This document shows, in pieces, positions 14,142-63,473 of a DNA stretch of 64,000 bases. The notes below the pieces were generated by a model. It saw only the letters and a program-made list of their open reading frames with translations, was not told the origin of the DNA and ran no database searches. The stretch's first letter is position 1; the number at the start of each line of letters is the position of its first letter. Both the position numbers and the translations under genes were made by a program. The stretch is from the NCBI GenBank assembly GCA_964409875.1, contig CAYPEN010000002.1, forward strand, positions 65,067-129,066, in the 5' to 3' direction. Origin of the DNA: an uncultured Gammaproteobacteria bacterium. GTDB taxonomy: Bacteria > Patescibacteriota > Microgenomatia > Levybacterales > GWA1-39-11.

Positions 14142-14148
14142 GAAAACC

Positions 14149-35112: not shown

Positions 35113-35114
35113 CT

Positions 35115-38999: not shown

Positions 39000-39014
39000 T
39001 TTGAGGTAATTCTA

Positions 39015-39758: not shown

Positions 39759-39844
39759 ATGATCTGATTTGCTATAAATTTACAATCTTACAGAATTTTA
39801 AACTTAATACTTTATACTAGAATCTTATACTTTCCATTTTATAC

Positions 39845-40849: not shown

Positions 40850-40886
40850 AAAAGAATAACACAGACGAAAAATATCTACAAGAAAC

Positions 40887-42203: not shown

Positions 42204-42290
42204 ATTGTATGATTAAAACTCATAATTACTATGAGCCTTAAATTCATTTTATCACTTATTTTCTACCAGTCAATATAAAAAACAATTTTC

Positions 42291-43268
42291 TTACGAAAGA
42301 AGAGTTATCCATACAGTCATTGCAGTAGATAATTTCCGCCAATACCCTCTTTTTTTACCTAATTCTTTCGCAATTTCTAAATAACACCCTTCAATAGTAT
42401 TGGAGGTTAAGCGTATATCTTCAACTTCTCTCCACAACCATTCATTGACCGGTATACCGGTCTTCTCTTTCTCTATATTTACATCTGTATTTGATGCCCT
42501 ACTGTGCTTTACGGATGGAGCACCGGAAGTAATTGCATAACCCAAATGGTCGCAAATTTTCTTGATAAATAATCCTGCCCAGATGTCATCAAATCGGTCA
42601 TAAGGCCATTTATTTTCGTTCTTATCCTTACCCATCAGCAAAAAATACATTGCAGGCAAAATTTCCCGTCTGAAAGCCAAATTCATAGAACACATCGGAA
42701 AGTACTTCCCATACGGCACTTTTTCTACCTTTTTGAACGGTTTTGTCCTCAACTCCGGGTATTTTTTTTGTGTAATTCCATCAAGATCGGGAATATTTGA
42801 CCAAAGACCGTGATGGACCATGGTCGGCTGCCTTTTATCCCTAAACTCATATGGATATCCCCGTGGATAGATTTGATTTTCAAGCGTGTTCCACCAATAA
42901 TCACTCTGCCATTCTTTTTTTAAGCTCGTGAGAATATCTTTCATAAAACCGTTTTTGTATTGTTTCTCAGGCAAACAATCATCATCTAACGTCAGTATGT
43001 ACGTGCTCCCTTTTTGCCAAGCTTTTATGAAACCATACGATCTTACGGCTGCCGACCTGCGAGGTATAATCCAAGAATTTTTTCCTAGCTCACTTTCTAT
43101 ATCTTCCCAACTGTAATGCTGTATCCATTGAGGTAGTTTGAAGCTTTTTTGGGGGTTATCTTCAACTACAATAATTTCAAGTCCGGAAAACTCCTTTTCC
43201 CAAGCTGTTAAGAACGAATTAATTGATTGCTCACGGATGGTAGGTACAATAATTGCAATATCTTTCAT
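42291..43268 (-). CDS. Reversibly-glycosylated-polypeptide (RGP)/UDP-arabinopyranose mutase-like protein (GT75-like)
   Basis: Blocks LTLDDDCLP, HGLWSNIPDLDG, FPMCSMNLAFRREILPAMYF, RFDDIWAGLFIKKICDHLGYAITSGAPSVKHSRASN closely parallel conserved plant RGP/UAM motifs (from memory of the family). Confidence 0.6.
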   Translation of the reverse strand: MKDIAIIVPTIREQSINSFLTAWEKEFSGLEIIVVEDNPQKSFKLPQWIQHYSWEDIESELGKNSWIIPRRSAAVRSYGFIKAWQKGSTYILTLDDDCLPEKQYKNGFMKDILTSLKKEWQSDYWWNTLENQIYPRGYPYEFRDKRQPTMVHHGLWSNIPDLDGITQKKYPELRTKPFKKVEKVPYGKYFPMCSMNLAFRREILPAMYFLLMGKDKNENKWPYDRFDDIWAGLFIKKICDHLGYAITSGAPSVKHSRASNTDVNIEKEKTGIPVNEWLWREVEDIRLTSNTIEGCYLEIAKELGKKRGYWRKLSTAMTVWITLLS

Positions 43269-43357
43269 TTAGTTTCCTATCTTACTCAATTTTTGCTTGG
43301 TTTAAAAGCTTCTTTTTGAATTTGTCAAAAGTCTGCAGACGATGGTACACTTCACAC

Positions 43358-43939
43358 ATGCCAAGACTTATTGCCATTATTCTATTCATCGTCTTACTTC
43401 CCCTTTTTCCATTAATGTTTGTGCTAATAACAATTACCTCTGATGGTCCTTTTATTTTCAAACAAAAAAGAATGGGGAAAGGAAAAAAGGTATTCACAAT
43501 TTATAAACTGCGAACGATGGTGAAAGATGCTGAAAAACTAAAATCTAAATACTTACATCTGAATGAGACTGATGGTCCAGTCTTTAAAATCCGTAACGAT
43601 CCCAGATATACAAGTATTGGGAGATTTCTTGCAAGAACAGCACTTGATGAACTGCCCCAGCTCATAAATATAATTAAGGGCGAAATGGCTTTTGTGGGGC
43701 CTCGCCCCCTTCCTGTTGAAGAAGCAAGAAATGTACCTAAAAAATATGACGCCCGTTTTTCTATCCTCCCCGGGCTTACATCAACTTGGGTTATAAAAGG
43801 GTCTCACCAGCTCAAATTTGAACAATGGATGGAACTTGATTTGAAATACGTAAAGAATAAGACTTTATGGGGTGACTTTGAAATTATTCTTAAAACTTTT
43901 TTTCTCATATTTAAATCTTTAATAAATATAAGAAGGTAG
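43358..43939 (+). CDS. Polyprenyl-phosphate sugar phosphotransferase (bacterial sugar transferase, WbaP/PglC-like small form)
   Basis: Start MPRLIAI at 43358; PVFKIRNDPRYTSIGRFLARTALDELPQLINIIKGEMAFVGPRP signature. Confidence 0.85.
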   Translation: MPRLIAIILFIVLLPLFPLMFVLITITSDGPFIFKQKRMGKGKKVFTIYKLRTMVKDAEKLKSKYLHLNETDGPVFKIRNDPRYTSIGRFLARTALDELPQLINIIKGEMAFVGPRPLPVEEARNVPKKYDARFSILPGLTSTWVIKGSHQLKFEQWMELDLKYVKNKTLWGDFEIILKTFFLIFKSLINIRR

Positions 43940-43974
43940 CCCAAAAAACGTTTCCGAATATGCTACCATAAATC

Positions 43975-45153
43975 ATGATCCGGTTGCTGCCTTATTTCCT
44001 CTTTTTCCTACTAGCGCTTGAGGGACTCGGAATTCCTAACGGCCGGGAACTGGCATATGCAATTCTCGTACTGGGTTCTCCAATATTTTTTATCCACACT
44101 TTTTTTCAAAAAAAAGCATTTAAAATACCCAGAACGATAACAATACTTTTCATATTATTAATTGTTTCTGCTTTTATATCTTCATTTATGGGTTTAAAAC
44201 CGCAAAATTCTCTTCAATATTCTTTTCTGTTACTGTCAATCTTTTTCCTTTTTCTCGTTGCATATAACAATCAAAAAGAACTCACAAAACCAATCATAGT
44301 AGTAATTTTTCTTTCCTCTGCGCTCTTTACTCTTTATTCAGCTCTTCTTTCCTTTCATATTAATTTCCCCCTGCCTGCAAATGGTTACCAGTTCGTATTT
44401 TCGAAATTCGGCTCGCACAACCACCTCGGCGACTTTCTGGTTCTTCCTTCAATAATTTGCCTATATTACTTATATAACCGCAAGTATGTATTACTAGCTA
44501 TTAGCTATCAGTTATTTGCTATTATTTTCATTTTTTTCTCCTACTCCCGATCTGCATACCTTTCATTAGCATTAACAACAATTTTGCTGCATTTAATGTA
44601 TTTAAAATCTAAAAACTCTTTACACACCATACTTCTATCAAGGCTTTTAATGCTCATATTAGTTCTTTCATCAGCTTTTTTTATTGTCGCAACAACCCGC
44701 CAGGCAATAACCCAACCCTTATCAAAAGAAGTAAATGAAACGCTCGTTAAAAAAGGAGGTTTAAAGCATAAAGAATTATTGGGCAATAGGCTTGAGTATA
44801 TAAGGCAATCTCTCCTCTCAGTACAAAAAAACTCAATTTTTGGCATTGGTCCTAACAATTTTTTGTTAGTTTCCAAAACGTATGCACCCAAAAAATCTTT
44901 AATTACTGAAGCTACTCACAACATTTTTCTTGAAATACTCGTAGGACAGGGAATTTTAGGGCTTTTGCCTTTTATCACTATTAACATCCTTATATTGATA
45001 AAATCCAAAAAAAATGCCCTTTATTTCGGGTTGGTGGCATTGCTTATCAATTTCCAAACAGATTATACGTACCAAATTTATTCGTTTCTTCTTCTATTTT
45101 TTGTCCTAAGTGGCGTGATTTTAGAACAACCTAACCATAATCCTAACTCGTGA
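43975..45153 (+). CDS. O-antigen ligase-like (Wzy_C) membrane protein
   Basis: Polytopic; FSYSRSAYLSLALTTILL loop typical of Wzy_C. Confidence 0.6.
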   Translation: MIRLLPYFLFFLLALEGLGIPNGRELAYAILVLGSPIFFIHTFFQKKAFKIPRTITILFILLIVSAFISSFMGLKPQNSLQYSFLLLSIFFLFLVAYNNQKELTKPIIVVIFLSSALFTLYSALLSFHINFPLPANGYQFVFSKFGSHNHLGDFLVLPSIICLYYLYNRKYVLLAISYQLFAIIFIFFSYSRSAYLSLALTTILLHLMYLKSKNSLHTILLSRLLMLILVLSSAFFIVATTRQAITQPLSKEVNETLVKKGGLKHKELLGNRLEYIRQSLLSVQKNSIFGIGPNNFLLVSKTYAPKKSLITEATHNIFLEILVGQGILGLLPFITINILILIKSKKNALYFGLVALLINFQTDYTYQIYSFLLLFFVLSGVILEQPNHNPNS

Positions 45154-45182: not shown

Positions 45183-45470
45183 ATGATGACCAAAAATTCT
45201 CCTAAAATTAAAATTATTAAAGGTTTTGTTACTCAAAGAAATGGAAAAACCGTTACTATCTTTGATGCAGAGAAGTCAATGCTCTACACTTTTAATCCGT
45301 CGGCAACTTTTATTTTCGAAAGGTTGAAAAAGGGACTGGATGCCAATAAAATTGCTTCTTTAATGATGAAAGAATTCAACATACAAGAGAAGAAAGCAAT
45401 TGATGACATCAACGATTTCATTAATACTCTGCTCGCAAAAGGACTCGCAAAAAAGGAAAAGATTGCATAA
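45183..45470 (+). CDS. PqqD-family protein (RiPP recognition element-like peptide chaperone)
   Basis: 95 aa; SMLYTFNPSATFIFERLKKGLDANKIASLMMKEFNI...AIDDINDFINTLLAKGL matches the PqqD/RRE pattern (beta-strands + LNxTA..IW..LDG..ei.....dv..fl..L...GL). Confidence 0.75.
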   Translation: MMTKNSPKIKIIKGFVTQRNGKTVTIFDAEKSMLYTFNPSATFIFERLKKGLDANKIASLMMKEFNIQEKKAIDDINDFINTLLAKGLAKKEKIA

Positions 45471-46683
45471 TAAACCTTTTTGTCTTTCTATTAATAACCC
45501 AAAGTAATGAGTACAAAATTGTACCATTAAGAAACACAAATATTTTAATCCACAATGGGTTTGGAGAAAGAGAAAATAGCACTCTAAAAAAATTACCCTC
45601 TCCTAGAATTTCTTTTTCATCAAAAATATTTGTTTTGCCAAACTTTCTTTCTACTAAATTCGCATTGCTTATTTTTCTAAGACCCTTATAAAACGGGCTT
45701 TTAATACGCTTTCTATCGTAATACTTTACATAAAGAAACAAAGCGGAATAGATGAAATTCCATAATTTATACTCCTTAATAGTGTTTAAAATTTGATAGT
45801 AATTTATTTTTTTCTTAAAGACTTCTCTCATAAATTGATATCGATACCCACCCTCAAAATTGTGATGGTAAATATGAAGAAGCAGATAGATGATTAAATT
45901 TTCAATCTTTAAAACAGGAAATTTTACCCTTTCAATCTCAATATATTCCTTTTCATATATAAACTTTTGAGATAACTTGTCTACAAGTTGTTGGGGATAC
46001 AATTTTTCCACTTTACCAATACTGGTCATTAAAAAAACTATTTCAAGATGGATATCAAATGTGACAATCAGTCCGTTGACGTTTTTGTAGAACGAAATTT
46101 CAGCCTTATCAAGCATTGTTTTTCCCGTTAGAGAAGTCGGTGTAACCATTTTGTAGCTATTATCAAAAAGGAGTTTCTTAACCTTTTTGAACTGTTTCTT
46201 ATGAATAAGAATATCGCAATCTGCATAAATTCGACTTGGATACTTTCCTTCGTATAAAAGATGCAAAGGTAGACCTTTCAGAATAACAAAGTCAATTTTA
46301 TGCTCCATAAATAAGCCTGCAATCCTTCTTATCTCATCGAAATACAAACTGGACTGCATAAGATACAGGTCCTCAACTTTATACTTATGACTTCCTCGTT
46401 GGATAGAATCGACTAAACCGATTATCCTCTCTGGTCTTATTTTCCCATCAGATAAACGGTTATTATCCCCTTTTGTTATGAGATATTTATTCGTTTTGTA
46501 CAACACCCTATGAGTAATCAAATGGCTATTTTTTTTAAAACAAACAATATCGTTAGTTTTAATTCTGTTAAAGCTAATTTTCTTAATATGAACTGTATCT
46601 TGGTCTCGAAGGATAGGGAACATAGAATTCCCAAAAGTTTTTATCTTTCCTCTCTTTACTACCTGGTTGACTAAATCTTGCAT
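45421..46683 (-). CDS. Fusion protein: N-terminal S24/S26-type serine peptidase domain + C-terminal uncharacterised nucleotidyltransferase (NTP_transf_5-like) domain
   Basis: N-term GNSMFPIL...ITKGDNN (Ser nucleophile SM motif of LexA/signal-peptidase fold); C-term FVILKGLPLHLLYEGKYPSRIYADCDILIHK matching KG..LY....R...D.D.L nucleotidyltransferase motif. Confidence 0.55.
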   Translation of the reverse strand: MQDLVNQVVKRGKIKTFGNSMFPILRDQDTVHIKKISFNRIKTNDIVCFKKNSHLITHRVLYKTNKYLITKGDNNRLSDGKIRPERIIGLVDSIQRGSHKYKVEDLYLMQSSLYFDEIRRIAGLFMEHKIDFVILKGLPLHLLYEGKYPSRIYADCDILIHKKQFKKVKKLLFDNSYKMVTPTSLTGKTMLDKAEISFYKNVNGLIVTFDIHLEIVFLMTSIGKVEKLYPQQLVDKLSQKFIYEKEYIEIERVKFPVLKIENLIIYLLLHIYHHNFEGGYRYQFMREVFKKKINYYQILNTIKEYKLWNFIYSALFLYVKYYDRKRIKSPFYKGLRKISNANLVERKFGKTNIFDEKEILGEGNFFRVLFSLSPNPLWIKIFVFLNGTILYSLLWVINRKTKRFIMQSFPFLRVLLRAEY

Positions 46684-46703: not shown

Positions 46704-48179
46704 TTAATATTGAAGTGATTTTAATTTTGCCTTTATATCATCGTTAAAATTTGAATCATTTTCTTCGAAGCCGTTATTTTGTTGCTCTGATATTATGAAG
46801 GGTGAAGGCAAATTATAAGGTGCTAGATGTTCATATAAAACTTGCTTTAACCTACCTGCAATTCGAGGAAGCTTATCTATCAAATTATTACTCTCATATT
46901 TATCTTTCTCAACGTTATATAACTCTTCATAATTATTCTCATGTATGCAAGACCCGGGAAGCGAATAGATATATTTATATTCGCCATCGCTTACGGAAAA
47001 CTTCGAAAGGTTGTTATTTTCTGAAAACGAATATTTCCTCCGGTTAGCTGGGAATGGATTAATAAATAAACTCCGGTTAAATAGGTAAGCAAAGCTCTGC
47101 CCGTCGAAAGCAGAATTATCTTTAATACTCATCAAATCGAGCAGTGTCGGAAGAATATCAGTGTTTTGCAACATAACATTTGAGGTCATTTTATGATCAG
47201 ATAATGGATCGTAGATTATAAGCGGAATCTTTATGGCAGAATCGTATAGAACAGTTCTGTGGTCAAAATAATAATTGTGGTCAAATCCTTCTCCATGATC
47301 CCCATAGATAACAACTATTGTGTTCTTTAAGACCCCGATTTTTTTAAGAGTATTTAATATTTCTCCTGTTATCCGGTCAGCCGAAGCAACTCCACCATCG
47401 TAGAGATTTTCCATAAGCCCAATCCTTTCTTTGGGCACCGTTCTATTTTGACATTTTTGATACTCACCACGTAATCGTTCCAGGTCTTCCAAGCTTTTTC
47501 CGCTGATTTGTGAGCAATATTTAGAGTTAAACTTACAACGTAAATCATCAGGAGGATAATAAGGTGCATGTACATCCATTAAATGAATCCAGGTAAAGAA
47601 TTTAGTATTATGGTTTTTTTCCAACCAGCCTGAAGCTTGTCTTATAAAAGACTCATAGTCTGCCCTACTACTTTGCCTGAATTGTTCATTCCCACTTTTA
47701 TCGAATTGAAAATACTTGAATATGTGAAAATGAAAATCATCAATCCCCTGGTCAAGAGGCTCACCTGTGATAAATGCAGCTGTCTTATATCCGGCTGTTT
47801 TTAACTCCGTTGCCAGTGTCTTAGTATTCCAACTTATACCAGAAAAGCTATTATTCAAAATTCTGGTCTTTAAAGGATCGTAACCTGTCATAAGAGAAAT
47901 AAATGAAGGGTGTGTCATGGGAACTGTAGTTGAAACGTTAGTGAATACTTTTGCGTTATTCGAAAAATTATCTATGTTTGGGGTTGTTTTTTTTTCGTAT
48001 CCATAGACCCCCATATGATCAGGTCTTAATGTGTCAATCGATATTATGACAAGATTGAGGTCTTTTGCCCGTTTGACAATATAAATCTGTCTTCCAAATT
48101 CGAAGGCGGTATAGGATAGAATCAGAATTATTATTACAAGAAAAAGTTTTTTTGATATTAATTTTTTTAATTTCTTCAT
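46704..48179 (-). CDS. Sulfatase-like alkaline-phosphatase-superfamily enzyme (membrane anchored)
   Basis: LVIISIDTLRPDHMGVYGY...PNIDNFS...TTVPMTHPS core; start codon overlaps upstream stop (translational coupling). Confidence 0.7.
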   Translation of the reverse strand: MKKLKKLISKKLFLVIIILILSYTAFEFGRQIYIVKRAKDLNLVIISIDTLRPDHMGVYGYEKKTTPNIDNFSNNAKVFTNVSTTVPMTHPSFISLMTGYDPLKTRILNNSFSGISWNTKTLATELKTAGYKTAAFITGEPLDQGIDDFHFHIFKYFQFDKSGNEQFRQSSRADYESFIRQASGWLEKNHNTKFFTWIHLMDVHAPYYPPDDLRCKFNSKYCSQISGKSLEDLERLRGEYQKCQNRTVPKERIGLMENLYDGGVASADRITGEILNTLKKIGVLKNTIVVIYGDHGEGFDHNYYFDHRTVLYDSAIKIPLIIYDPLSDHKMTSNVMLQNTDILPTLLDLMSIKDNSAFDGQSFAYLFNRSLFINPFPANRRKYSFSENNNLSKFSVSDGEYKYIYSLPGSCIHENNYEELYNVEKDKYESNNLIDKLPRIAGRLKQVLYEHLAPYNLPSPFIISEQQNNGFEENDSNFNDDIKAKLKSLQY

Positions 48180-48652
48180 AATGACTTAATAATAAGGTAA
48201 TTAGCTGCTGCATTTTTCTCATAAAGGTTTGCAGTTTCTTTTATTGTCACATTGTCATTTTTTGTAAGTGACCCAAATGGGATATTATTCCCAAAATTGT
48301 CTATAACGCTTACTTCATGACTGTTATCGGGTGTCAGTAAAAACTGTTTCCTATTGCCATTTTTCTCGATTGTTATCCTTTTTGTTTTTGTATCCATATT
48401 TTCAGTAATATTAAAAATAGAACCTTCATAAACATTTATCAATGTAGATGTAGTCAAAGTACTTTTAGAGGAATAGAAAAAATTAAATAAGACAGACGAA
48501 CTGTAAGGAAGGTAAAATGTTTTGACCTCTCGAGGATTTTTCAACATAAAAGAATTGATATGTGGTTTTTCGTGGATAAAAATAAAAAATTCCAGAATAC
48601 AAAATGCAGTCAAAAAAAACGCAAGATAGGAGAGATTAATCTTATTTTTCAT
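48176..48652 (-). CDS. Small membrane-anchored hypothetical protein, translationally coupled between SagB-like and sulfatase-like genes
   Basis: N-terminal TM; 1-nt overlap with SagB-like stop and 4-nt overlap with sulfatase-like start. Confidence 0.4.
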   Translation of the reverse strand: MKNKINLSYLAFFLTAFCILEFFIFIHEKPHINSFMLKNPREVKTFYLPYSSSVLFNFFYSSKSTLTTSTLINVYEGSIFNITENMDTKTKRITIEKNGNRKQFLLTPDNSHEVSVIDNFGNNIPFGSLTKNDNVTIKETANLYEKNAAANYLIIKSL

Positions 48653-49428
48653 TATCCTAGAGCTACCACTTCAAGAACAGTCTCGGAAAACCCATCTATA
48701 TCAAGATAGTTATTCAGTTTATCATCTACATAGCCTCCGATAGCACAGCATGCTATATTTTGTGAGGCGGATATTAAATAAATATTCTGCAGCATGCAAC
48801 CTGCCTCGGTAAGCACATGTCTATATCCCCTATTTCCATATTTCGTAGTATTTCTGATAAAAACGCCGGTTATAATTAATAATGCGGATGCTTTATATAC
48901 CCACTCCTGGCCTTTGAAAGATTCTACCACAACATCACTATTAAACTCCCCGACAAGCTCAAGCGAGTTATTCTTGACATAATAATGATAAAGGCCTTGA
49001 GGAATTTCCGAATTCATACTGATGAAATAGACCTCCAACGGATATCTTGCTCCTGCAGAGGGATAAAATCTTGCACCTGTTCGGTTATCTTTAATACCGG
49101 CAGAAAAATAAAGCAGATTGCTTATCCGTTCGGTTGTTAGTACTTGACTAAATTCCCTTCGGGATTCTCTTTTTTCCAAAAATTCAGAAAGAACTTTCTG
49201 TTCAAGTACGGGCTTTGGAAGTATAGTTTCGGGCAAACGAGCATAGCCTTTATAGAAAATCTTGATCCATTCAGTTGGCCATTCGCTTCTATTGATTTCT
49301 TTCTTATATTTTTTTATCTTTGTCAGGTTATGGAATTTTTCGAAAGGCTGCATCGGTTCTTTCAAAAGTTCATTCACATCGATATCGTCTTTTTTTAATA
49401 CCTTTGAGTCTGGACGTGTACTCACCAT
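48652..49428 (-). CDS. SagB-type (McbC-like) FMN-dependent dehydrogenase of azoline-forming RiPP pathways
   Basis: Nitroreductase-fold motifs RESRREF, YPSAGARYP, RGYRHVLTEAGCMLQNIYL, ACCAIGGY. Confidence 0.85.
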   Translation of the reverse strand: MVSTRPDSKVLKKDDIDVNELLKEPMQPFEKFHNLTKIKKYKKEINRSEWPTEWIKIFYKGYARLPETILPKPVLEQKVLSEFLEKRESRREFSQVLTTERISNLLYFSAGIKDNRTGARFYPSAGARYPLEVYFISMNSEIPQGLYHYYVKNNSLELVGEFNSDVVVESFKGQEWVYKASALLIITGVFIRNTTKYGNRGYRHVLTEAGCMLQNIYLISASQNIACCAIGGYVDDKLNNYLDIDGFSETVLEVVALG

Positions 49429-49466
49429 GATGTTAAAATATAGCAGATTCCAAGGGATTGTAAAGA

Positions 49467-50261
49467 ATGGATGAATTTTATGTGTCTATTGCGGGTTTTT
49501 TAATCAGGTTGCTTTTTAAGAAAGATGATCGGAAAAATAACCAACAGGAAATTATTATCTACAAACTCCAAACTGAGATTCTCCATACTCTAGCAGGGTT
49601 TGTGTCTGTTGTTACTAGAAATCCTGACTTTACAATTACCATCTCAGAGACCAAGGATGTTGAACGCATCAAGAGGAAGTCGGATCAACATAATTTTATC
49701 TACCAGTATCACAGAATTGATGACAGAAGAGCTTGTGGAAATTACCAAATGAGCATCTGGCATTTTCAATCGATGCTTGCAGACATTTTATATTTTCTGC
49801 TTTCTGAAAACGATGGATTTGGCATACACTGTTCCTCGGTCTATTCTGGAAATAAAGCATATCTATTCTTGGGAAATTCTGGTGCCGGAAAATCTACTAT
49901 AGCAAATCTTCTGAATGGTTATTTCCAGCACTTTACGGACGACATCGCATTTGTTAGAAAGATTGATAAGAAGTATTATCTCTATCAATCACCCTTTCTT
50001 GAGAAGGAAAACAATATTAAATTTCCCTATGGATATGAGATCTCACAAGTCTTCTTCCTGCATAAAAGCAACACGACATGCATCAAAAGGTTAAAGCAAA
50101 ACAAGATTGTAACAAGATTGACAAGACAAGTGCTATCAGACGGTAACTTACCCAAAAATATCCGTAAGACAGTGGAACAATTCGCTTCGCAGGATGTTTT
50201 CAGTGAACTTTACTTTGAAAAAGACCCACAAAAATTGAATGATGTATTGAGGAGGATTTAG
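49467..50261 (+). CDS. HPr-kinase C-terminal-domain-like P-loop protein (HprK-related kinase)
   Basis: GIHCSSVYSGNKAYLFLGNSGAGKSTIANLLNGYFQHFTDD parallels HprK hGVlv...G.GvLi.G.SG.GKSE.AleL...G..liaDD. Confidence 0.65.
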   Translation: MDEFYVSIAGFLIRLLFKKDDRKNNQQEIIIYKLQTEILHTLAGFVSVVTRNPDFTITISETKDVERIKRKSDQHNFIYQYHRIDDRRACGNYQMSIWHFQSMLADILYFLLSENDGFGIHCSSVYSGNKAYLFLGNSGAGKSTIANLLNGYFQHFTDDIAFVRKIDKKYYLYQSPFLEKENNIKFPYGYEISQVFFLHKSNTTCIKRLKQNKIVTRLTRQVLSDGNLPKNIRKTVEQFASQDVFSELYFEKDPQKLNDVLRRI

Positions 50262-50271
50262 TTGAAATATT

Positions 50272-50469
50272 CTAATGGCACATTGCACCGCATGGTCCTG
50301 TAGGAAAGCACATAGCACCCGAGGTTCCAGAACAAGATCCGTAAGTAATAGCGTATACATTCGGGATGATTGAATTGTATGAGTCATTAAACCTGCCGTT
50401 TGCCATGAATTGATTGATTTTAATCTTCTTAATCTTTATTGAAGGTTTTATGTATTTTTTTGAACCCAT
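50272..50469 (-). CDS. RiPP precursor peptide (TOMM/LAP-like): Lys-rich leader + C-terminal core SCSGTSGAMCFPTGPCGAMCH
   Basis: 65 aa (or 44 aa from internal Met); core contains 4 Cys, 3 Ser, 2 Thr, 5 Gly in 21 residues; lies 63 bp downstream of YcaO on same strand; TATAAT 8 nt upstream of ATG. Confidence 0.7.
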   Translation of the reverse strand: MGSKKYIKPSIKIKKIKINQFMANGRFNDSYNSIIPNVYAITYGSCSGTSGAMCFPTGPCGAMCH

Positions 50470-50532
50470 ATGTTGTTAAAGCATTATACCCATAATACAG
50501 AATCTTCACCCGGTGGTCAAATTGAGTATCCC

Positions 50533-51801
50533 CTATAAGAAGGGATGAGGGATTTGATTTATTTTCACATTTTCAGCTCTAAAGAAATCAGCAACCTGCT
50601 TAAGCCTTTTCCTGTTAACAAATTTCTTTTGTTTTTCAAACAGGTATAGAGGTTGTAAGTTAGGAATTAAAATTTTATATGTTACATAATTAATTTTTTT
50701 TAACTGTCTGGCACTTATATCAGCACAAAATATTTCATACCCTTTTTGGCTCAATATTTTTACAACATGCTCTAATTCTTCTTTTTCCGATCCCTGAAAT
50801 TTTGTCATTCTTTTTTTCGATGGTTTTTGTGAAAATAGAAAATCAAGCTTGTCAATCGCCTCAACCGGCCACCAGTAAAATCCACGTTCATGCAGCTCCT
50901 TCATGAACTTGCCCTCGTTTTTAACTTTTTCGCCATTTAATGACGATAGTTTTGCAGCTCTCATGATACTTCTTACCATAAAAGATTCATCAATACTTCC
51001 TTTTATCGCATTTATGCAATTGAAACCCGCTTTCGCCCCTACCGATACAGCGGGGCCAAGTCCAGTCCTGTCAACCAGTATCGATATGAACGATGGGATG
51101 CCCAAATCATTGGTGGCATCAAATATAGATAGCTCCAAATTATACCGTTTAATCGACTTTAAAACAGACAAAAGATCTTTATCTTTTTGTTCATTAATAT
51201 CAATCATAGGTAGCCGTATGGAATTTAAATACGCACAAACAAAAGCGTCTCTCTCAATTACTTCGTAAATACCTCTTAATACTGATGACTCGAAGTTAAA
51301 GCCTCCAGCTGCACCTGTACTTACGAGAGGATATCTATAATCTATTTCCTTTCTGGACGATTTATAATTTAGATAGACAAGCTTTGCAGGAATAACGGTA
51401 GTATTTTTTTTCATAAGATTAATCCCCTCGATATAGCTGACTAATCCATTTTCTCTTATTACCGGAGAAAAAGCTGACAATGGAAATTTGCGATGAAGCC
51501 AGTTGTCGGCTTTTATGTGTTTGACCTTTTTTTCCTTGTAAGATGACAGAGAATAGCGTTCTATAGTCTCACCTAAACATTTCAGAAGAGCGATTTCTCG
51601 GTTGGAAAGCGACACGCCACTTGCACCTAATTCTTTATCGAGATAACCGTCAGTGTGTTTTTGGCTAAGTGCTAGCTTTGCGAAGTAATAATAGAACCTC
51701 GGATCATCATTGAAATATTTTGCTTCACCTATTGACTCCAAAATCCCTAGATCCAATAAACTATCGAGCATTTTTTCCATAGTATTTCTCATATTATTCA
51801 T
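50533..51801 (-). CDS. YcaO-domain cyclodehydratase (SagD-like)
   Basis: CLGETIERYS, STGAAGG (ATP-binding), EVIERDA, and C-terminal proline-rich PHPFL terminus typical of azoline-forming YcaOs. Confidence 0.9.
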   Translation of the reverse strand: MNNMRNTMEKMLDSLLDLGILESIGEAKYFNDDPRFYYYFAKLALSQKHTDGYLDKELGASGVSLSNREIALLKCLGETIERYSLSSYKEKKVKHIKADNWLHRKFPLSAFSPVIRENGLVSYIEGINLMKKNTTVIPAKLVYLNYKSSRKEIDYRYPLVSTGAAGGFNFESSVLRGIYEVIERDAFVCAYLNSIRLPMIDINEQKDKDLLSVLKSIKRYNLELSIFDATNDLGIPSFISILVDRTGLGPAVSVGAKAGFNCINAIKGSIDESFMVRSIMRAAKLSSLNGEKVKNEGKFMKELHERGFYWWPVEAIDKLDFLFSQKPSKKRMTKFQGSEKEELEHVVKILSQKGYEIFCADISARQLKKINYVTYKILIPNLQPLYLFEKQKKFVNRKRLKQVADFFRAENVKINQIPHPFL

Positions 51802-51863
51802 CCTTATTAGACTAGAAAAACATATTAGGAGAATATGTATCTTTATGCAAGGGTCAAGAGGGG

Positions 51864-52451
51864 TTAAATTCGAGTTATAGTCAATTCATTTAAAAAGTCC
51901 GGGTATCTTTTCATTAATGATGTGTTAATTTTTATTATTACTTTATCTCCGGGTTTCAAGTCATTAACTTTAATAGGTATATCATTTCCGGCCTTTTTTT
52001 CAAAAACGTGCACTCTATTCATGTATTTACCTCCCACATAATATGGAACTTTATAAGAATCCTTTAAGGATGGGTCATCATAATTTAAAGTAATGGAAAA
52101 TGCATATGGTGCATTTAATCTGGGAGCAATTCCACCCTTCACATCAACGTCTCCAATATAACCCTCATATTCGAGCACCGAATAAGCTTGGTGTAATTTT
52201 TTAAAATCGGATAGTTTTTGTAAAAGAGTTGTCCGCGAAGAATAGATTTTTAATTGTTGATCGTAACTTGTCCCATTATTATCTTGGGTCTGGTGCCATG
52301 GTAAATATGAAGCTATATGAATGACCCCAAATCGGTCCAATACAAAAATTGCAATTGCAATCACACTTAATATCACTAAAACTTCATATATCAAGGCCCT
52401 TACCCCTACCGCTCTTTTCCTGGTTTCGCTTTGCATACTAAAGTTTTCCAT
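51864..52451 (-). CDS. Membrane-anchored hypothetical protein (paralog B of tandem pair)
   Basis: N-terminal TM; C-terminal DLKPGDKVIIKINTSLMKRYPDFLNELTITRI shared with neighbour. Confidence 0.5.
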   Translation of the reverse strand: MENFSMQSETRKRAVGVRALIYEVLVILSVIAIAIFVLDRFGVIHIASYLPWHQTQDNNGTSYDQQLKIYSSRTTLLQKLSDFKKLHQAYSVLEYEGYIGDVDVKGGIAPRLNAPYAFSITLNYDDPSLKDSYKVPYYVGGKYMNRVHVFEKKAGNDIPIKVNDLKPGDKVIIKINTSLMKRYPDFLNELTITRI

Positions 52452-52452
52452 A

Positions 52453-53046
52453 TTATTGTTTGGTAATTAAAACTTGGTTGATATTATTGGGATAGGCACG
52501 AAGAGTTCCTGTATTCGTCCTAACTGTTACTTTATCACCGACCCTCAGATCTTTCAAACTTATCACCTTTTTCAAAGAATCTACAACCTTTATCTTATCC
52601 ATTGCTAATGTAGGATAAAGAAGTGTTGCACTTTCTGAACCCTTACCTACTCCTACTACTAACTTTGCACTTATAGAAGCTTTCGTTGCGGTATCCACTT
52701 CAGGGTTCAAATCTATTGTTATTATTTTCCCTTCAAATTCACTGATATTTTGAGCCATATGTAAAGCTTTATTTCTAGAAACAATATTTAAGTCTGGCTG
52801 GGCTGGATTTAGCTTGATATAATTTTGTTTCTGACTTAGCCTCTGATTGTCGAATGAATTAGGCTTTATTTTTGCATTTTGACTAGGTTGGAAATTAGGT
52901 TTTCGTGCAAAAAGAGCATATATATCTATGATCTTCAAAAAATTGAGCATAAAAATAACAATGCTTGTCAAAATAAGGATTATTGCAATCTCAATTATTG
53001 CAGCTTTCAAAATCCCGAAAGTTGTTGTCGAAGTATTATTTTCCAC
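52453..53046 (-). CDS. Membrane-anchored hypothetical protein (paralog A of tandem pair)
   Basis: N-terminal TM; C-terminal LKDLRVGDKVTVRTNTGTLRAYPNNINQVLITKQ; stop abuts start of paralog B. Confidence 0.5.
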   Translation of the reverse strand: MENNTSTTTFGILKAAIIEIAIILILTSIVIFMLNFLKIIDIYALFARKPNFQPSQNAKIKPNSFDNQRLSQKQNYIKLNPAQPDLNIVSRNKALHMAQNISEFEGKIITIDLNPEVDTATKASISAKLVVGVGKGSESATLLYPTLAMDKIKVVDSLKKVISLKDLRVGDKVTVRTNTGTLRAYPNNINQVLITKQ

Positions 53047-53557: not shown

Positions 53558-55606
53558 CTACCGCAGAACTCCTACTAACTTTAGCACGTAAGGCATGACT
53601 TGGGTTATTTGAGGCTTTTTAAAACCCAATTTTCTATTTGAGAGCAATACGCCGGGTACTTCGGTCGGGTCAAAAAGGTGATCCCCGCTCCATTTATAAG
53701 TTCTCTTTGTTATCACATCAGGAGTTGTCGCCCCTATCGCGCTGTCCCAGGATGAGCGCGTTCCTTTATAAAAACCTAAAATCAGATCAGGTGCGTAGTT
53801 ATCATCGGGTGAAACACCCATCTCTTCTCTTGTATAAACGTGCTTCATTATCTTATCTCCCGTTTGAGGATTTATCTCATCCATTAATTTTTGAATGATC
53901 TCTTTTTGTAACTCTCGTATATCTTTAGGATGAACTGATCCTTCTTCTTCGCGTCCTGAAATATTGAAAAACACACTGTTGTATCCTGCAGCATACGCTT
54001 TCGTCTTGCTCCAATCGACAGAATCATATAATGGTCCGGATTCATTTGCTCCCTCTCTTAATACCAAATAACCATTCTTGACCAAGAAAGTATTAACGTT
54101 CATTTCGTAATCAAATGAATAAAACCCATGATCGGAAAGTATCAGGAAAGTCGTATCCTTATCCATTTTTGCAATGGTCTGCCCTACTATCTCATCCATT
54201 TTTTCATAATACTGGTTTATCGTGTCATGATATGGACTGTTTTGATCTTTTAAAAATCGCCAGAACATATGAGAAATTGTATCCGGCATGCCAAAATAGG
54301 CAAAAAGGATTCCGTTGTTGTAAGAGGCAAGCTTTGAGTAATAAATTTTCTTTCTTTCGGCAAGAATTGAATCTGCTTGCTTAAGGAAAGCCTTTTCATC
54401 AAACACGTTCTCTTCCAAAGCCCAGGTGTCATGCGGAAGACCCAAAGTTGAGTACAACCCAAGCTCCTTTGAGAGTTTTGCAGAAAATCCTTTCGGTGCA
54501 GAAATAGGTTTTAAAGGTGTTTCAGGGTCAAAATTAATGGGTGACATATACAACTCAATGTCGGGAGATACACTTTTGAGGTAAAACTTGGCTATCCCTT
54601 TAACTTTTGTAAAGAAGTCTATGCCAAATTCCAAACGTTTCCAATCGGAAAACTCCCCTTTAGCAATTTTGAAAGTTTGCTTTTGAACGCTAATTTCAAC
54701 AGAAGAATCCTTAATAACCTTAATGGTAAGCGGAACTGTTGCTACTTTTGTATCGTTACCGCCATTATATTTTGGTCCCTCTATATTTGTATCTATTGTC
54801 TTTTTATATGAAACGGGAATTACTTTTCCCCTCCAGGTATAATCATTGGTCGGATACTTTCTTGTAGTAAAAAGCGTAAATGTTCCCTGAGTTCCAAGGA
54901 CATCGGGTACCCCCATTCCTGCAATCATCTCGCCAGTCAGTGATTTTGGCGGCTCGAAAGTATCGGGCAAAAATAAAACGGTAACTGGAACTTTGTTTGC
55001 GGTTGTCTTTTCCCAAAAAGGAGTTGCATGAAGTGTCGTTGTATTTTTGTCGTTGCCTGAAAAGACTAAATTTAGGCCGTAATTTGCAGGATCCCGCTCA
55101 ATAAAGTCATATACTCCGTGCTGTGAAGGATTCTCCCCAGTTATAAAACTCGCCCATGCAACTGGGGACTGAGGCGGAACAACCGTTGCAAGAGGAGAGA
55201 AATAGCCCGTATCTTTAAGTTTTTTTAAATTTTTAAACCTTCCATTTTTCCACCCTTCTTCAAGAATATTTGGGTCCATTCCGTCAAAACCCAATATGAT
55301 TACTTTTTTTGTTTGCTTGGTGCCCAACAGAGACATACCCCCAATTATACCAGCGAATAAAACAAGCAAAATAAGAACAACAATAACGCTCTTTTTTCTG
55401 AAAAACGGGAATATTTTATATCTTAAATAGAATAAGCTCGAACCCAAAGCTCCCAGTATAACAGCAAGAAAAATTGGAATATTTGAACCCAATACGTATC
55501 CTGACCCAGGGTCTATATAGTTTAAAATCAATTGTGGATTTGAAAGAAGGGTTGCTGTGTACTGCAATTGCACCTCGCTTGCTGCTATTTGACAAAGAGC
55601 GCACAT
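53558..55606 (-). CDS. Type I phosphodiesterase/nucleotide pyrophosphatase family (alkaline phosphatase superfamily) membrane-anchored protein
   Basis: VIILGFDGMDPNILEE...ATVVPPQSPVAWASFITG motif block; N-terminal TMs. Confidence 0.75.
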   Translation of the reverse strand: MCALCQIAASEVQLQYTATLLSNPQLILNYIDPGSGYVLGSNIPIFLAVILGALGSSLFYLRYKIFPFFRKKSVIVVLILLVLFAGIIGGMSLLGTKQTKKVIILGFDGMDPNILEEGWKNGRFKNLKKLKDTGYFSPLATVVPPQSPVAWASFITGENPSQHGVYDFIERDPANYGLNLVFSGNDKNTTTLHATPFWEKTTANKVPVTVLFLPDTFEPPKSLTGEMIAGMGVPDVLGTQGTFTLFTTRKYPTNDYTWRGKVIPVSYKKTIDTNIEGPKYNGGNDTKVATVPLTIKVIKDSSVEISVQKQTFKIAKGEFSDWKRLEFGIDFFTKVKGIAKFYLKSVSPDIELYMSPINFDPETPLKPISAPKGFSAKLSKELGLYSTLGLPHDTWALEENVFDEKAFLKQADSILAERKKIYYSKLASYNNGILFAYFGMPDTISHMFWRFLKDQNSPYHDTINQYYEKMDEIVGQTIAKMDKDTTFLILSDHGFYSFDYEMNVNTFLVKNGYLVLREGANESGPLYDSVDWSKTKAYAAGYNSVFFNISGREEEGSVHPKDIRELQKEIIQKLMDEINPQTGDKIMKHVYTREEMGVSPDDNYAPDLILGFYKGTRSSWDSAIGATTPDVITKRTYKWSGDHLFDPTEVPGVLLSNRKLGFKKPQITQVMPYVLKLVGVLR

Positions 55607-55632: not shown

Positions 55633-56301
55633 ATGACCCTTCAGGATAAAATTGCCAAAACCAAGCAGATTTTAAAACAGGCTGAGAAGAAGTATGGCTT
55701 CAAAGATATTGCCCTTGCCTGGAAAGGTGGAAAAGACACAACAACCCTTATGCATATCATCCTGACTCTATATAATGGCGTTATTCCGTACAAGGTTATG
55801 TTCAATGACACGACAATAGAATTTCCGCAAATGTATAAATTCATTGAAAAAGTTGCCCACCAATGGAATTTGAATTTAATAATAGAGAAACATTCAGATA
55901 GTGACCTTGCAAACTACAAAAAAGCCCGCGGAATGGCCTTAAAGGAAGAAATCTCACGGCTCGCAAAAATCAATTCACTCAACAGAGCGTTGGAAAAGTA
56001 TAAATTAAAAGGTTATATGCTGGGAATACGCCGTGACGAAAACCCAGCAAGGAAAAATGAAAAATACTTCTCTCCTCGTCCAAACCACATAAGAATTCAC
56101 CCGTTACTTGAATTTACCGAGGAAGACGTGTGGGCATATATCCGTCTTTTCAACGTCCCTTACTCACCACTCTATGATAAAGGCTACCGCTCAATAGGCG
56201 AAAAACCTTTTACAAAAAAATCCTCGGGTGATGAGCGTTCCGGACGGGAACAAAATAAGGAAAAAATGATGGAAAAATTACGACAAATGGGATATTGGTG
56301 A
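55633..56301 (+). CDS. PAPS-reductase-family PP-loop protein lacking C-terminal catalytic Cys
   Basis: ALAWKGGKDTTTLMHI PP-loop; LGIRRDENPAR; C-terminal YRSIGEKPFT has no Cys in place of the CysH Cys motif. Confidence 0.7.
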   Translation: MTLQDKIAKTKQILKQAEKKYGFKDIALAWKGGKDTTTLMHIILTLYNGVIPYKVMFNDTTIEFPQMYKFIEKVAHQWNLNLIIEKHSDSDLANYKKARGMALKEEISRLAKINSLNRALEKYKLKGYMLGIRRDENPARKNEKYFSPRPNHIRIHPLLEFTEEDVWAYIRLFNVPYSPLYDKGYRSIGEKPFTKKSSGDERSGREQNKEKMMEKLRQMGYW

Positions 56302-56302: not shown

Positions 56303-57949
56303 TTACTTAATAAGTTTTTCCACCTTCAAAAACTTTAAAATTTCTCCCACACATACTTTAACGCTATGGTTTGTGGTATCAAGTATAATTTCAGGTGCAA
56401 GAGGCTTTTCGTAAGGGTCGTCTATTCCTGTTAAATTCTTAATCAAACCCATCTCAGCCTTTTTATACAGTCCTTTCGTATCCCTTTTTTTACATACGGA
56501 AAGTGGCGTTGAAACATATGCTTCGGCAAAAGTCCCAACCTGGGAAACAATTTCTCTCACCTCATCCCGCACCTTTCTATACGGCGCAATCGCCGCAACG
56601 ATTACTACCCCCTGGTGTTTTACGATTTCACCTGCAACAAACCCAATACGCCGAATGTTCTCGTCCCTATCATCCCTTGAAAACCCGAGGCCTTTTGTCA
56701 AATGTTTTCTAATAATATCCCCGTCAAGAAGCGTAACCGGCTTGTTGTACCTATCCATAAGCACTAACGATAGACTTTTTGCAACTGTTGATTTGCCTGC
56801 ACCTGAAAGACCGGTCAGAAAGACACAAAAACCCTTTTGCCTTTTAACTCTTCTCTTGAGGATTTTAATAACAGGTGGAAAAGAAAACCATTCCGGAACT
56901 TTTTCGTCTTCTCTTAACATCTTTCGAAATTGCGTCCCGGAAATCCGCTTGATGGCTTTCGCATCTTTGTTTTTGGCTGAAACTTCAACATATTGCTTGT
57001 TCTTTTCATCGTAAGCCATCTCGTTAAATTCAATAATTTTTATTCCAATCTCTCTGGCGTATTTTTGCGCAAGCTTTTGGGCATCGTAAGGCTCATAGAA
57101 AAGATTACCGTGACTATCTGTTCCGGGATCTGCATGGGACCGTCCGACAATAAAATGTGTACAACCATAGTTTTTACGGATAATTGCGTGCAGGATAGCC
57201 TCTCTTGGTCCTGCCATTCGCATCGCTAATGGCAATAGGCTAAGGGTAGAAAAATCCTTGGCGTATTTTCTTTGAATGATTTTGTAGCATTTAACTCTAG
57301 TTATATAGTCGATATCTCCGTCTTTCGTCTCCCCCACCGAAGGATGGATAAGAGCGTGTGCTTTTTCTTTTTCTGCAGCCTTCTTTATCATCCAGAAGTG
57401 AGCCTGATGAATAGGATTTCTTGTTTGAAATCCAATTACTTTCTTCCATCCTCTTTTCTTAAAATATTTCTTTAACTGCTGGGGTGTCTTTCTTAAATTC
57501 TTATAATCGTAGTGCTCAATAGAGCCCAATTTTTCAACTTTTCCACCAAGATAGTACTCATTTGTCCTTTCAAACAGATATTTGACTCCAAAATGTTCTT
57601 TTGAATCGGTTCCATACACCATTTGTGCTTCCTTTTTCTTGTCCGGCTTGTAGATAGACTCAACATGAAGTGTTGCAACCGGCTTTTCGGAAAGGTCGCA
57701 AAGTAGTACTTTTTGTCCAACATTAAAACCAGCTAATCCCTCTACATCCAAAACGATAGGAATTGGCCATAGAATGCCGTTTGAAAGGCGCATTTGGCTT
57801 ACAACAGAGCGGTAGTCGTCTTCGTTAAGAAATCCTGTCAAGGGGGCAAATCCGCCGTTTAGAATCAATTCTAAATCACAAAGCTGGCGGGTAGACAGAA
57901 AGATTTTAGAAAGAAAAGCCTCTGATGCTTCTTTCTGTAACATATTCAT
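56303..57949 (-). CDS. sat/cysC: Bifunctional sulfate adenylyltransferase (ATP sulfurylase)/adenylylsulfate kinase
   Basis: N-domain QTRNPIHQAHF and GRSHADPG motifs; C-domain Walker A LTGLSGAGKSTVAKSL of APS kinase. Confidence 0.9.
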   Translation of the reverse strand: MNMLQKEASEAFLSKIFLSTRQLCDLELILNGGFAPLTGFLNEDDYRSVVSQMRLSNGILWPIPIVLDVEGLAGFNVGQKVLLCDLSEKPVATLHVESIYKPDKKKEAQMVYGTDSKEHFGVKYLFERTNEYYLGGKVEKLGSIEHYDYKNLRKTPQQLKKYFKKRGWKKVIGFQTRNPIHQAHFWMIKKAAEKEKAHALIHPSVGETKDGDIDYITRVKCYKIIQRKYAKDFSTLSLLPLAMRMAGPREAILHAIIRKNYGCTHFIVGRSHADPGTDSHGNLFYEPYDAQKLAQKYAREIGIKIIEFNEMAYDEKNKQYVEVSAKNKDAKAIKRISGTQFRKMLREDEKVPEWFSFPPVIKILKRRVKRQKGFCVFLTGLSGAGKSTVAKSLSLVLMDRYNKPVTLLDGDIIRKHLTKGLGFSRDDRDENIRRIGFVAGEIVKHQGVVIVAAIAPYRKVRDEVREIVSQVGTFAEAYVSTPLSVCKKRDTKGLYKKAEMGLIKNLTGIDDPYEKPLAPEIILDTTNHSVKVCVGEILKFLKVEKLIK

Positions 57950-59663: not shown

Positions 59664-59800
59664 TTGCCCGAGAGTCCCCCGGCCTTGACCTATTTTCCCC
59701 AAATTATGAGTATCGTAGGCGCTGGCGCGTTTCACTTCTCTGTTCGGAAAGGGAAGAGGTGGTTCCACACCGCTCCAAAGACCGAAAGGCTTTCGGGCAA
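59664..59800 (-). rRNA. rrf: 5S ribosomal RNA
   Basis: Reverse complement contains CCGAACAGAGAAGTGAAACGCGCCAGCGCC (conserved loop B/helix III region) with terminal helix GCCCGAAAG / CTCTCGGGC. Confidence 0.75.
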
Positions 59801-59857: not shown

Positions 59858-63125
<3,268 letters not shown>

Positions 63126-63392
63126 ACAGATTCTTGAAAATCATGTGCGGTGTTCTCTTAACTTTAAAATTAAAATTGCTGTGTATCCGCCCTTAGGCGG
63201 AATACGGCCTAGTTATTTACTGACTTTAACGTCGCTGATGTGACGCTAAAGTGCTTGTATCCCAATTGTTAAAGAACATATTTCTACTGTATTCGAGGAA
63301 GGCCAGCTGTAGCGCTGCGCCTTTCTCCAACACAGTAGGTTGTCGAATTCAGTGGGTCAGCTAAGCTGACCATCACCCAGCTAAGCTGGGTG

Positions 63393-63413: not shown

Positions 63414-63473
63414 AAGTGTCTGACTCTGACCTCTCCGTCGATTTTCCTTGAGCCACTCTCAAAGAGCGAACTG

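Follow-up and report, generated by a model that had tools for sequence, protein, structure and literature searches.

What does the short open reading frame (ORF) that follows a YcaO gene in a Microgenomatia contig encode, and into what product would the genes around it turn the encoded peptide? The ORF occupies positions 50272..50469 (minus strand) of a 64,000-nucleotide stretch of DNA (contig CAYPEN010000002.1 of assembly GCA_964409875.1, positions 65,067 to 129,066), referred to below as the window, and had been named a candidate precursor peptide in an original prediction made from the letters alone. The analyses presented here make it very probable that the ORF encodes the precursor of a linear azole-containing peptide, whose leader would be read by a recognition and kinase module of the lasso type and removed after Ala40.

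The coordinates, the minus strand, the ATG start and the translation originally given for the ORF were all confirmed: it comprises 65 codons and a stop, and its translation is MGSKKYIKPSIKIKKIKINQFMANGRFNDSYNSIIPNVYAITYGSCSGTSGAMCFPTGPCGAMCH. It lies downstream of YcaO on the same strand, as had been stated, with the YcaO gene (50533-51801, minus strand) ending 63 nt 5' of it, and on the other side a convergent gene (49467-50261, plus strand) stops 10 nt from its end. The ORF is absent from public gene calls, and the exact peptide was not present in a collection of 15 billion proteins, which implies that it has never been called as a gene. Its sole close homolog, P0001 (66 amino acids, 71% identity), holds the matching position in fully syntenic metagenome contigs, several of them from activated sludge. 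In a codon comparison between the window and the related locus L001, 12 of the first 41 codons were the same, 21 differed only synonymously and 8 by replacement, with no indel, and in this part synonymous sites are saturated and dN is 0.14; among the last 25 codons, there were 10 identical, 4 synonymous-only and 10 replacement codons, and one indel. These counts indicate strong purifying selection on the N-terminal part in the frame 50272..50469 (minus strand), together with change of a relaxed or diversifying kind in the C-terminal part, which is the signature expected of a leader/core precursor. Judged from this pattern, the small ORF is a true coding gene under selection.

The start codon had been left with an alternative in the original prediction, namely the internal Met22, which would indeed give a product of 44 amino acids. 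Met22 was rejected, and Met1 is favoured as the start, because the motif Y6-x-x-P9-x-I11 lies upstream of Met22 and its family form, Y-x-x-P-x-[I/L/V/F] near the N-terminus, occurs in all 47 unique family members. The reported lack of a Shine-Dalgarno (SD) site was confirmed but is uninformative: such a site precedes only 3 of 45 window ORFs and 1 of 21 precursor family members, and its absence is therefore no evidence against translation. The TATAAT box placed 8 nt upstream by the original prediction in fact ends 13 nt before the ATG (50488-50483). It is a second -10-like element next to a promoter-like TTGACC-17-TATTAT (50492..50520, minus strand) in the spacer between YcaO and the precursor gene; the latter matches the sigma-70-like pattern at 10 of 12 positions, is the joint best site in 49300-52000 (tied with one other), and is kept in L001 together with the TATAAT box despite the saturated synonymous sites. 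Among the 45 larger window ORFs, many have a TAnnnT box no more than about 20 nt from the start codon, a sign that genes of the source genome often have a very short 5' leader or none.

Relatives of the peptide were sought with profiles. A two-sequence profile gave 28 matches at E<=1e-3 among 1.84 billion representative proteins, and protein-level homologs could be traced down to about 35-45% identity. When a hidden Markov model (HMM) of the leader was run on 31,247 stop-to-stop ORFs from 90 records, exactly one match was found in the window, and one or two ORFs matched in each of L010-L017, L020, L022, L030, L039, L047 and L058 (E 5e-13 to 7e-4). Taken over related loci as a whole, matches to the leader HMM reached E-values between 1e-28 and 1e-4. 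Uncalled small ORFs with the same leader were also located in L007, L008 and L009, beside YcaOs only 40-50% identical to that of the window. The window peptide has no Pfam or NCBIfam match at E<=1, and among 29 family members searched against the same two databases no leader model was matched, the only matches being to the Hint domains of six long members.

The split into a Lys-rich leader and a Cys/Ser/Thr/Gly core, which had been read from the single peptide, recurs in the 47 unique homologs as a conserved leader followed by a hypervariable core. In the window peptide, the leader (residues 1-40, MGSKKYIKPSIKIKKIKINQFMANGRFNDSYNSIIPNVYA; 50350..50469, minus strand) contains no Cys, has an isoelectric point of 10.2 and is Lys-rich in its N-terminal half. 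Its motif Y6-I-K-P9-S-I11 (50437..50454, minus strand), of the form YxxPx(L/I) and shared by every unique member, is the proposed contact for a PqqD-type recognition protein. An NxFF...RFxDS block follows, in which F21 and D29 are kept in at least 90% of 29 aligned members. With a permissive pattern search, a leader end of the form hydrophobic-(Y/F/L)-Ala was located in 44 of the 47 unique members; the boundary Ala is usually followed by Gln, Ser or Ala, and then by Ser or Thr (30 of 44), a +2 position that is Thr42 in the window peptide and a candidate phosphorylation site. Cys was found in none of 21 tabulated leaders and in 18 of 21 cores, and the cores, which are 13 to 128 residues long, are mutually unrelated in sequence.

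On the family alignment, the best reading is that the leader is removed after V-Y-A40 and not, as the original prediction had guessed, near ...AITYG/S; cleavage after Gly44 was accordingly rejected as the best guess. Signal peptidase I cleaves according to the -3/-1 rule, and the conserved V/L/A/I-x-Ala boundary before the core agrees with it. The proposed core (residues 41-65, ITYGSCSGTSGAMCFPTGPCGAMCH; 50272..50349 with the stop, minus strand) reads ITYGSC...MCH, and contains 4 Cys, 3 Ser, 3 Thr and 5 Gly (10 of 25 residues Cys, Ser or Thr), with no Asp or Glu; in the 21-residue core of the original prediction, 4 Gly were counted and not 5. The computed monoisotopic mass of the 25-residue core is 2437.93 Da, and would be 2357.82 Da with four thiazoles.

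Several precursors of the family depart strongly from the window peptide in size or number. At L058 (9847-10359, plus strand), the core has 128 residues with 26 Cys in Gly/Cys/Ser repeats, and at L015 (4445-4810, plus strand) a 121-residue precursor carries long (Ser-Cys)n runs. Two precursor genes (1393-1647 and 6056-6250) surround a single YcaO-SagB pair in L014, where the genes of the ScmC-family protein (1653-2483, 6252-7106) and of the peptidase-nucleotidyltransferase fusion (2584-3960, 10159-11517) are duplicated as well. In other members (L039 12521-13078, plus; L047 12700-13302, plus; L066 12723-13304, minus; L094 3364-3972, plus; proteins P0140, P0142, P0152, P0153, P0154 and P0156), the family leader is followed by a Cys-rich core of 6-14 residues and then by a C-terminal Hint, or bacterial-intein-like, domain. 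This domain begins with C-[F/L]-[L/V]-x-x-[G/T]-T (for example CFLAGT), ends with VHN plus 0-10 residues and matches PT-HINT (E 1e-11 to 2e-15). From its place after the core, it could set the modified peptide free with a thioester at the C-terminus; no paper joining a precursor of a peptide synthesized by the ribosome and modified post-translationally (RiPP) with a Hint domain was found in the literature searched.

Genomic context analyses linked the precursor to one subclade of YcaO proteins. A first scan of species genomes with the single YcaO protein as query gave no confirmed relative, and a second scan based on an alignment succeeded. Across 80 species-representative loci, the precursor was present in 11-12 of the 12 loci with a ScmC-family gene versus 3 of the 68 without it (Fisher p = 4e-10), and in those three the contig ends about 1-2 kb from the precursor gene, two of the contigs being 3-5 kb long. 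The 17 loci with precursor and ScmC formed an exclusive clade when 81 YcaOs were compared by neighbour joining, and a same-leader ORF stood beside YcaO in 17 of 17 loci of this subclade. Loss of the ORF where YcaO is kept, or a different small ORF as the conserved partner, had been named as outcomes that would speak against the prediction; the ORF is retained at all of these loci and no other such partner was found. Look-ups that started from the precursor reached the same cluster type (L092, L094) or fragments of it (L090, L095). The conserved gene set consists of YcaO, a SagB dehydrogenase, the precursor, the ScmC-family protein, a PqqD protein and a fusion of a signal-peptidase-like domain with NTP_transf_5; frequent additions are a sulfatase-family protein, a small sugar-phosphate transferase and one to three members of a membrane-anchored family. 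This distribution shows that the precursor co-evolves with the enzyme set of the cluster. The named relatives belong to the Microgenomatia of the candidate phyla radiation (CPR), namely Levybacteria, Roizmanbacteria, Daviesbacteria, Gottesmanbacteria, Woesebacteria and metagenome-assembled genomes labelled 'Patescibacteria group'. Microgenomatia-type clusters also occur in L013, L014, L016, L018, L019 and many more records under the title 'uncultured Gammaproteobacteria bacterium', which looks like a placeholder or a wrong label.

The YcaO protein (50533..51801, minus strand) is a predicted cyclodehydratase of 422 amino acids without a fused partner domain (PF02624, E=1.5e-39), and its alignment to the SagD model TIGR03604 spans positions 5-376 of 377. 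The profile of its family matches the azoline-forming heterocyclases MusD, TruD and LynD (E 2e-27 to 7e-23), and the ExxER and EviERD nucleotide/metal motifs align between the two groups. The protein ends in ...IPHPFL, of which PHPFL is, we assume, the PxPxP motif of azoline-forming YcaOs; a PDB sequence search with the C-terminal 51 residues gave no match and did not support this assignment. The SagB-type flavin mononucleotide (FMN)-dependent dehydrogenase, predicted to convert azolines to azoles (48652..49428, minus strand; PF00881), scores 125.3 bits on TIGR03605, above the cut-off of 78.4, and adjoins YcaO in nearly all 90 loci. Thioamide chemistry of the TfuA type was considered and rejected, as no TfuA domain was found in the cluster with Pfam and NCBIfam and SagB is present.

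The convergent gene at 49467..50261 (plus strand) encodes a ScmC-family P-loop protein, a candidate peptide kinase with the fold of HPr kinase and phosphoenolpyruvate carboxykinase (PEPCK). Its match to TIGR04249 (E=5.6e-7, 29 bits) is far under the cut-off of 125, and PF27840 is assigned to its homologs in precomputed annotation. An AlphaFold model of a homolog (pLDDT 90) had ATP-PEPCK and HPr kinase/phosphatase as top PDB folds, with low TM-scores of 0.3-0.5, while a PDB sequence search with the ScmC protein returned P-loop matches only. The residues H121, G141, K142, S143 and D159 are invariant in the family, whose HMM aligns with BsfK, a lasso-precursor kinase, at 41.8 bits over LHxSAV..FLxGxSGAGKST..ADD. 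The discrete PqqD-type protein, a predicted RiPP recognition element of 95 amino acids (45183..45470, plus strand; PF05402, E=1.6e-11), has TfuB1, a B1 protein of the lasso type, as its top PDB sequence match, which is not significant (E=0.18), and the HMM of its cluster family aligns over the full length with BsfB1 at 37.6 bits. In both Bsf comparisons, the databases were small and local, so that the bit scores are meaningful and the E-values are not.

The gene at 45421..46683 (minus strand) encodes a fusion of a signal-peptidase-like domain (residues ~13-95; PF00717, E=3e-4) with an NTP_transf_5 nucleotidyltransferase (PF14907, E=1.3e-20), and thus a candidate leader peptidase joined to a candidate tailoring enzyme; a PDB sequence search with the whole fusion gave no match. 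The N-terminal domain is of the endoplasmic reticulum (ER)/SipW type. Its boxes GxSMxP, (T/G)HR and KGD(N/H)N are kept in 13 of 13 homologs (with GEN in one), and read GNSMFP, THRV and KGDNN in the window; this retention of the catalytic Ser/His/Asp motifs makes the domain a credible leader peptidase. The original prediction had pointed to an adjacent S24/S26 peptidase in this role, which holds as to the cluster and the catalytic motifs but not as to adjacency, since the gene lies about 3.6 kb away.

The remaining genes between these enzymes were also compared. A sulfatase or alkaline-phosphatase-superfamily protein with an N-terminal membrane helix is encoded at 46704..48179 (minus strand; PF00884, E=1.9e-46), and genes of this family are embedded in the rearranged clusters L009, L012, L017 and L047. 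Two tandem membrane-anchored paralogs of 195 and 197 amino acids (51864..53046, minus strand; 51864-52451 and 52453-53046) were linked by jackhmmer to a third of 158 amino acids (48176..48652, minus strand), which has no Pfam match. Proteins of this family combine a membrane helix at the N-terminus with a C-terminal domain rich in beta structure; an AlphaFold model built on a three-sequence alignment reached a pLDDT of 61, and a fold search with it gave no significant match. Members recovered by jackhmmer lie directly upstream of the precursor in L014, L020, L030, L039, L047 and L066, and in distant clusters the gene is immediately 5' of the precursor, often overlapping it (L020 11936-12541, L039 11921-12520, L047 12056-12724). 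The family could serve as an immunity or export factor.

How the cluster relates to described systems was then considered. A small precursor with leader and Cys/Ser/Thr/Gly-rich core beside a YcaO cyclodehydratase and a SagB-type FMN dehydrogenase is the arrangement of linear peptides that contain azol(in)e rings (LAPs) and of thiazole/oxazole-modified microcins (TOMMs). In contrast to these, the window cluster has a discrete PqqD in place of an E1-like (C) or Ocin-ThiF-like (F) partner, its YcaO lies under the SagD cut-off, its leader matches no catalogued TOMM precursor family, and it further encodes a protein similar to kinases, a nucleotidyltransferase and a domain like that of signal peptidases. 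The PqqD protein, the ScmC protein on the opposite strand and the missing E1-like partner had escaped the original prediction. LAP clusters have been predicted in silico in CPR bacteria (110 clusters in 93 genomes; Sharrar et al., 2020, mBio, PMC7298704), those of Microgenomates consisting of YcaO, nitroreductase and peptidase with a small precursor beside YcaO, so that azole-peptide clusters in CPR are of a general kind already known. The description in PMC7298704 does not cover the leader family of the window peptide, the PqqD/ScmC/nucleotidyltransferase module or the cleavage motif, a distinction that is drawn between descriptions and not between precursor sequences. In L021, a sister CPR type was observed, with a 72-residue Pro/Cys-rich precursor (..QPCKPPGPPVPCRPPTCAPQPCKCTSPCVCSTPRC..; 9742-9960, plus strand) upstream of YcaO and SagB; its genes at 9989-13379 encode YcaO, SagB and a 435-residue protein with an HFLEH motif (M16-like peptidase), and the cluster has neither ScmC nor PqqD. 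The example cluster in PMC7298704 may be of this sister type.

The other half of the cluster resembles the phosphorylated or phosphoglycosylated lasso peptide systems (paeninodin, pseudomycoidin, bsf). BsfK of the Bradymonas bsf cluster is a validated lasso-precursor kinase that requires the B1 recognition protein and phosphorylates a core Ser (Ser3); the same study gives the lasso leader motif YxxPxL and lists the key BsfK residues (PMC10368454). In lasso clusters, a kinase and nucleotidyltransferase pair adds a hexose to the phosphate (phosphoglycosylation), the nucleotidyltransferase is sometimes fused to the leader peptidase, and a sulfotransferase is carried (PMC8498205). With these systems, the window cluster shares the YxxPxL motif (IYKKPQL in the BsfA leader, KYIKPSI in the window), a discrete B1/PqqD protein, an HPr-kinase-like kinase with an H..GxSGAGKS..DD core, a nucleotidyltransferase, fused to the leader peptidase in some of them, and sulfur-transfer genes nearby. 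It differs from them in that no Asn-synthetase-like cyclase or B2 transglutaminase-type peptidase was found in the window cluster (Pfam and NCBIfam) or in the related loci. Furthermore, the motif lies about 35 residues before the core versus 17 in lasso leaders, the -2 position is Tyr39 and not Thr (or Ile/Val), the core offers no Asp or Glu for ring closure, and the core chemistry would come from YcaO and SagB. The SynChlorMet cassette (TIGR04249) also pairs ScmC with PqqD, and the two genes are adjacent, sometimes overlapping, in L009, L016, L017, L039 and L058; the two radical S-adenosylmethionine (SAM)/SPASM enzymes of that cassette are absent from the window cluster, and the TIGR04249 score is 29 versus 125 bits. 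Literature searches on ScmC and SynChlorMet yielded no relevant paper. ER/SipW signal peptidase I (S26) has the GxSMxP, HR and GDN boxes and fits the V/L/A-x-A site before the core, whereas the window domain has no membrane anchor, is fused to a nucleotidyltransferase, is presumably cytoplasmic and scores under the TIGR02228 cut-off. By its gene content, the cluster would thus work both like a LAP/TOMM system and like the tailoring half of kinase-type lasso systems, being a full member of neither. The precursor family and the hybrid architecture are a new variation on the predicted CPR azole-peptide clusters, uncatalogued in Pfam and NCBIfam, and no description of the leader family or of the combination of YcaO, PqqD and HPr-kinase-like protein was found in the literature searched.

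A pathway can be proposed from these comparisons, in which transcription, translation and the division into leader and core are drawn from the sequence evidence and the later steps from the enzyme families and published precedents. Translation would begin at Met1 on a short mRNA without SD, probably from a promoter of its own, giving a basic, Cys-free leader of 40 residues and the 25-residue core. The PqqD-type protein is expected to bind Y6-x-x-P9-x-I11 and to hand the peptide at least to ScmC, perhaps also to other enzymes, a hand-over modelled on the service of the lasso B1 protein to BsfK. ScmC may phosphorylate a Ser or Thr of the core, Thr42 being the counterpart of the conserved +2 Ser, and the NTP_transf_5 domain may extend the phosphate. 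With ATP, YcaO would cyclodehydrate Cys46, Cys54, Cys60 and Cys64, perhaps along with some Ser/Thr, to azolines, which the SagB flavoprotein would oxidise to azoles with a loss of 20 Da per ring. Finally, the signal-peptidase-like domain would cut off the leader after V38-Y39-A40.

Several observations weigh against this proposal. The YcaO protein scores 177.7 bits on TIGR03604, under the cut-off of 219.25, and no E1-like or Ocin-ThiF-like partner was detected with Pfam and NCBIfam in any cluster protein. The peptidase domain, at 49.9 bits on TIGR02228, is just under the cut-off of 51.85 and has no N-terminal membrane helix, no hydrophobic segment preceding the catalytic Ser. No transporter was found in the window cluster. 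Since the sister CPR clade has no PqqD gene, PqqD may serve the kinase only, and since the C-terminal residue of the precursor is His and not Ser, the site of paeninodin (PadeK)-type kinases is absent. Promoter-like sites in the region are not more numerous than in shuffled sequence, and the promoter proposed above is for this reason suggestive at most. Three family cores (L009, L016, L039a) are without any Cys.

The last of these points also bears on a different account of the locus, in which the ORF is a genuine precursor but azoles are not the decisive modification: the lasso-like module would make a phospho-, glyco- or sulfo-peptide, with YcaO and SagB in a secondary role or in other amide chemistry, and the product might attach to, or act on, the cell envelope, perhaps with the involvement of the sulfatase-family, sugar-transferase and 3'-phosphoadenosine-5'-phosphosulfate (PAPS) genes. 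Besides the three cores without Cys, it would explain why the leader family follows ScmC, PqqD and NTP_transf_5 and not YcaO/SagB in general. It also fits with the Bac_transf, sulfatase-family and PAPS genes that stay linked even in rearranged clusters, with the surface-glycan locus on the left flank of the window and with the joint occurrence of kinase, nucleotidyltransferase and sulfotransferase in lasso clusters (PMC8498205). Nevertheless, YcaO and SagB are present at every family locus on a long enough contig, the YcaOs of the family form one clade that co-evolves with the leader, most cores are extremely rich in Cys and typical of azole substrates, and SagB passes its curated cut-off. This account is consequently judged unlikely as a replacement for an azole peptide, although the two are not mutually exclusive.

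That the ORF encodes a small basic protein of another kind, for instance a regulatory, structural or nucleic-acid-binding peptide that happens to lie in the cluster, would suit the Lys-rich and strongly conserved N-terminal half, the leader isoelectric point and the failure of any known family to match the peptide. It is very improbable, because a conserved N-terminus joined to a hypervariable, Cys/Ser/Thr/Gly-rich C-terminus of 13-128 residues is the mark of a precursor and not of a folded protein; besides, precursor copies are duplicated at some loci and the lasso-type recognition motif co-occurs with a cognate PqqD protein. Least probable by far, with next to no chance of being right, is that the frame is open by accident or is a non-coding element, conserved in the gap that separates YcaO from the convergent ScmC gene, as the lack of an SD site and the silence of the gene finders of the source record might suggest. 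The scarcity of SD sites is genome-wide, Rfam has no family that matches the region, homologs are recognised at the protein level with E down to 1e-13, and in two genomes whose synonymous sites are saturated, synonymous change is the only difference at 21 of 41 leader codons; the substitution pattern, which excludes a chance ORF or an RNA element, and the protein-level family have already refuted it.

The reading of the ORF as an azole-peptide precursor can be carried further, to a claim that is tentative and somewhat doubtful in its full breadth. The ORF may represent the first example of a RiPP class, so far undescribed and restricted to CPR Microgenomatia, which would combine a lasso-type leader code (YxxPxL, B1-like PqqD, HPr-kinase-like enzyme and nucleotidyltransferase) with a partner-less YcaO/SagB pair and a cytoplasmic signal-peptidase-like protease. 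In addition to its azoles, the peptide product would carry phosphorylation or phosphoglycosylation, and some relatives would finish by thioester release through the Hint domain.

CPR bacteria, whose genomes are tiny, live attached to other microbes, and their secreted molecules are almost uncharted. For this group, the present analysis turns a vague 'LAP-like cluster' into a testable proposal, with at least 47 distinct precursors, proposed cleavage site and motif, a candidate enzyme set and predicted masses. The cluster points to YcaO enzymes that act without the canonical E1-like partner, and to an exchange of modules among RiPP classes, in which an azole pathway employs recognition and tailoring parts of the lasso type. 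The Hint-fused relatives hint at a further maturation route, and thioester release, if true, would be a novel final step in making a RiPP.

Other genes of the window lie around the cluster. Those linked to it in rearranged order encode a Bac_transf sugar-phosphate transferase, sulfatase-family proteins, a 680-residue membrane protein of a phosphodiesterase family, and PAPS-synthesis and PAPS-reductase-like proteins; in the window, the cluster-linked genes lie at 43253-43939 (plus), 46704-48179 (minus), 53558-55606 (minus), 55633-56301 (plus) and 56303-57949 (minus), and likewise linked genes were observed in L012, L017, L020, L066 and L092. In L007, an arylsulfotransferase (4781-6070) stands in their stead. 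The left flank of the cluster (34306-45153) is a cell-surface glycan locus with two Wzy_C proteins, a family-2 glycosyltransferase, a second sulfatase-family gene (37563-38999), a WecG/TagA transferase, a GDSL esterase, a GH10 xylanase-like protein with a twin-arginine translocation (TAT) signal and an RGP-family protein. The cluster is also only a few genes from the rRNA operon, as the window holds a 23S rRNA gene (59859-63126, minus strand) flanked by a 5S rRNA and a tRNA-Ala(TGC) (59677-59786 and 63473-63546, respectively, both minus strand). This 23S rRNA gene measures 3268 nt versus 2925 nt for the model, which implies about 340 nt of insertions. Positions 14001-16000 have a GC content of 0.50, versus 0.30-0.45 elsewhere in the window.

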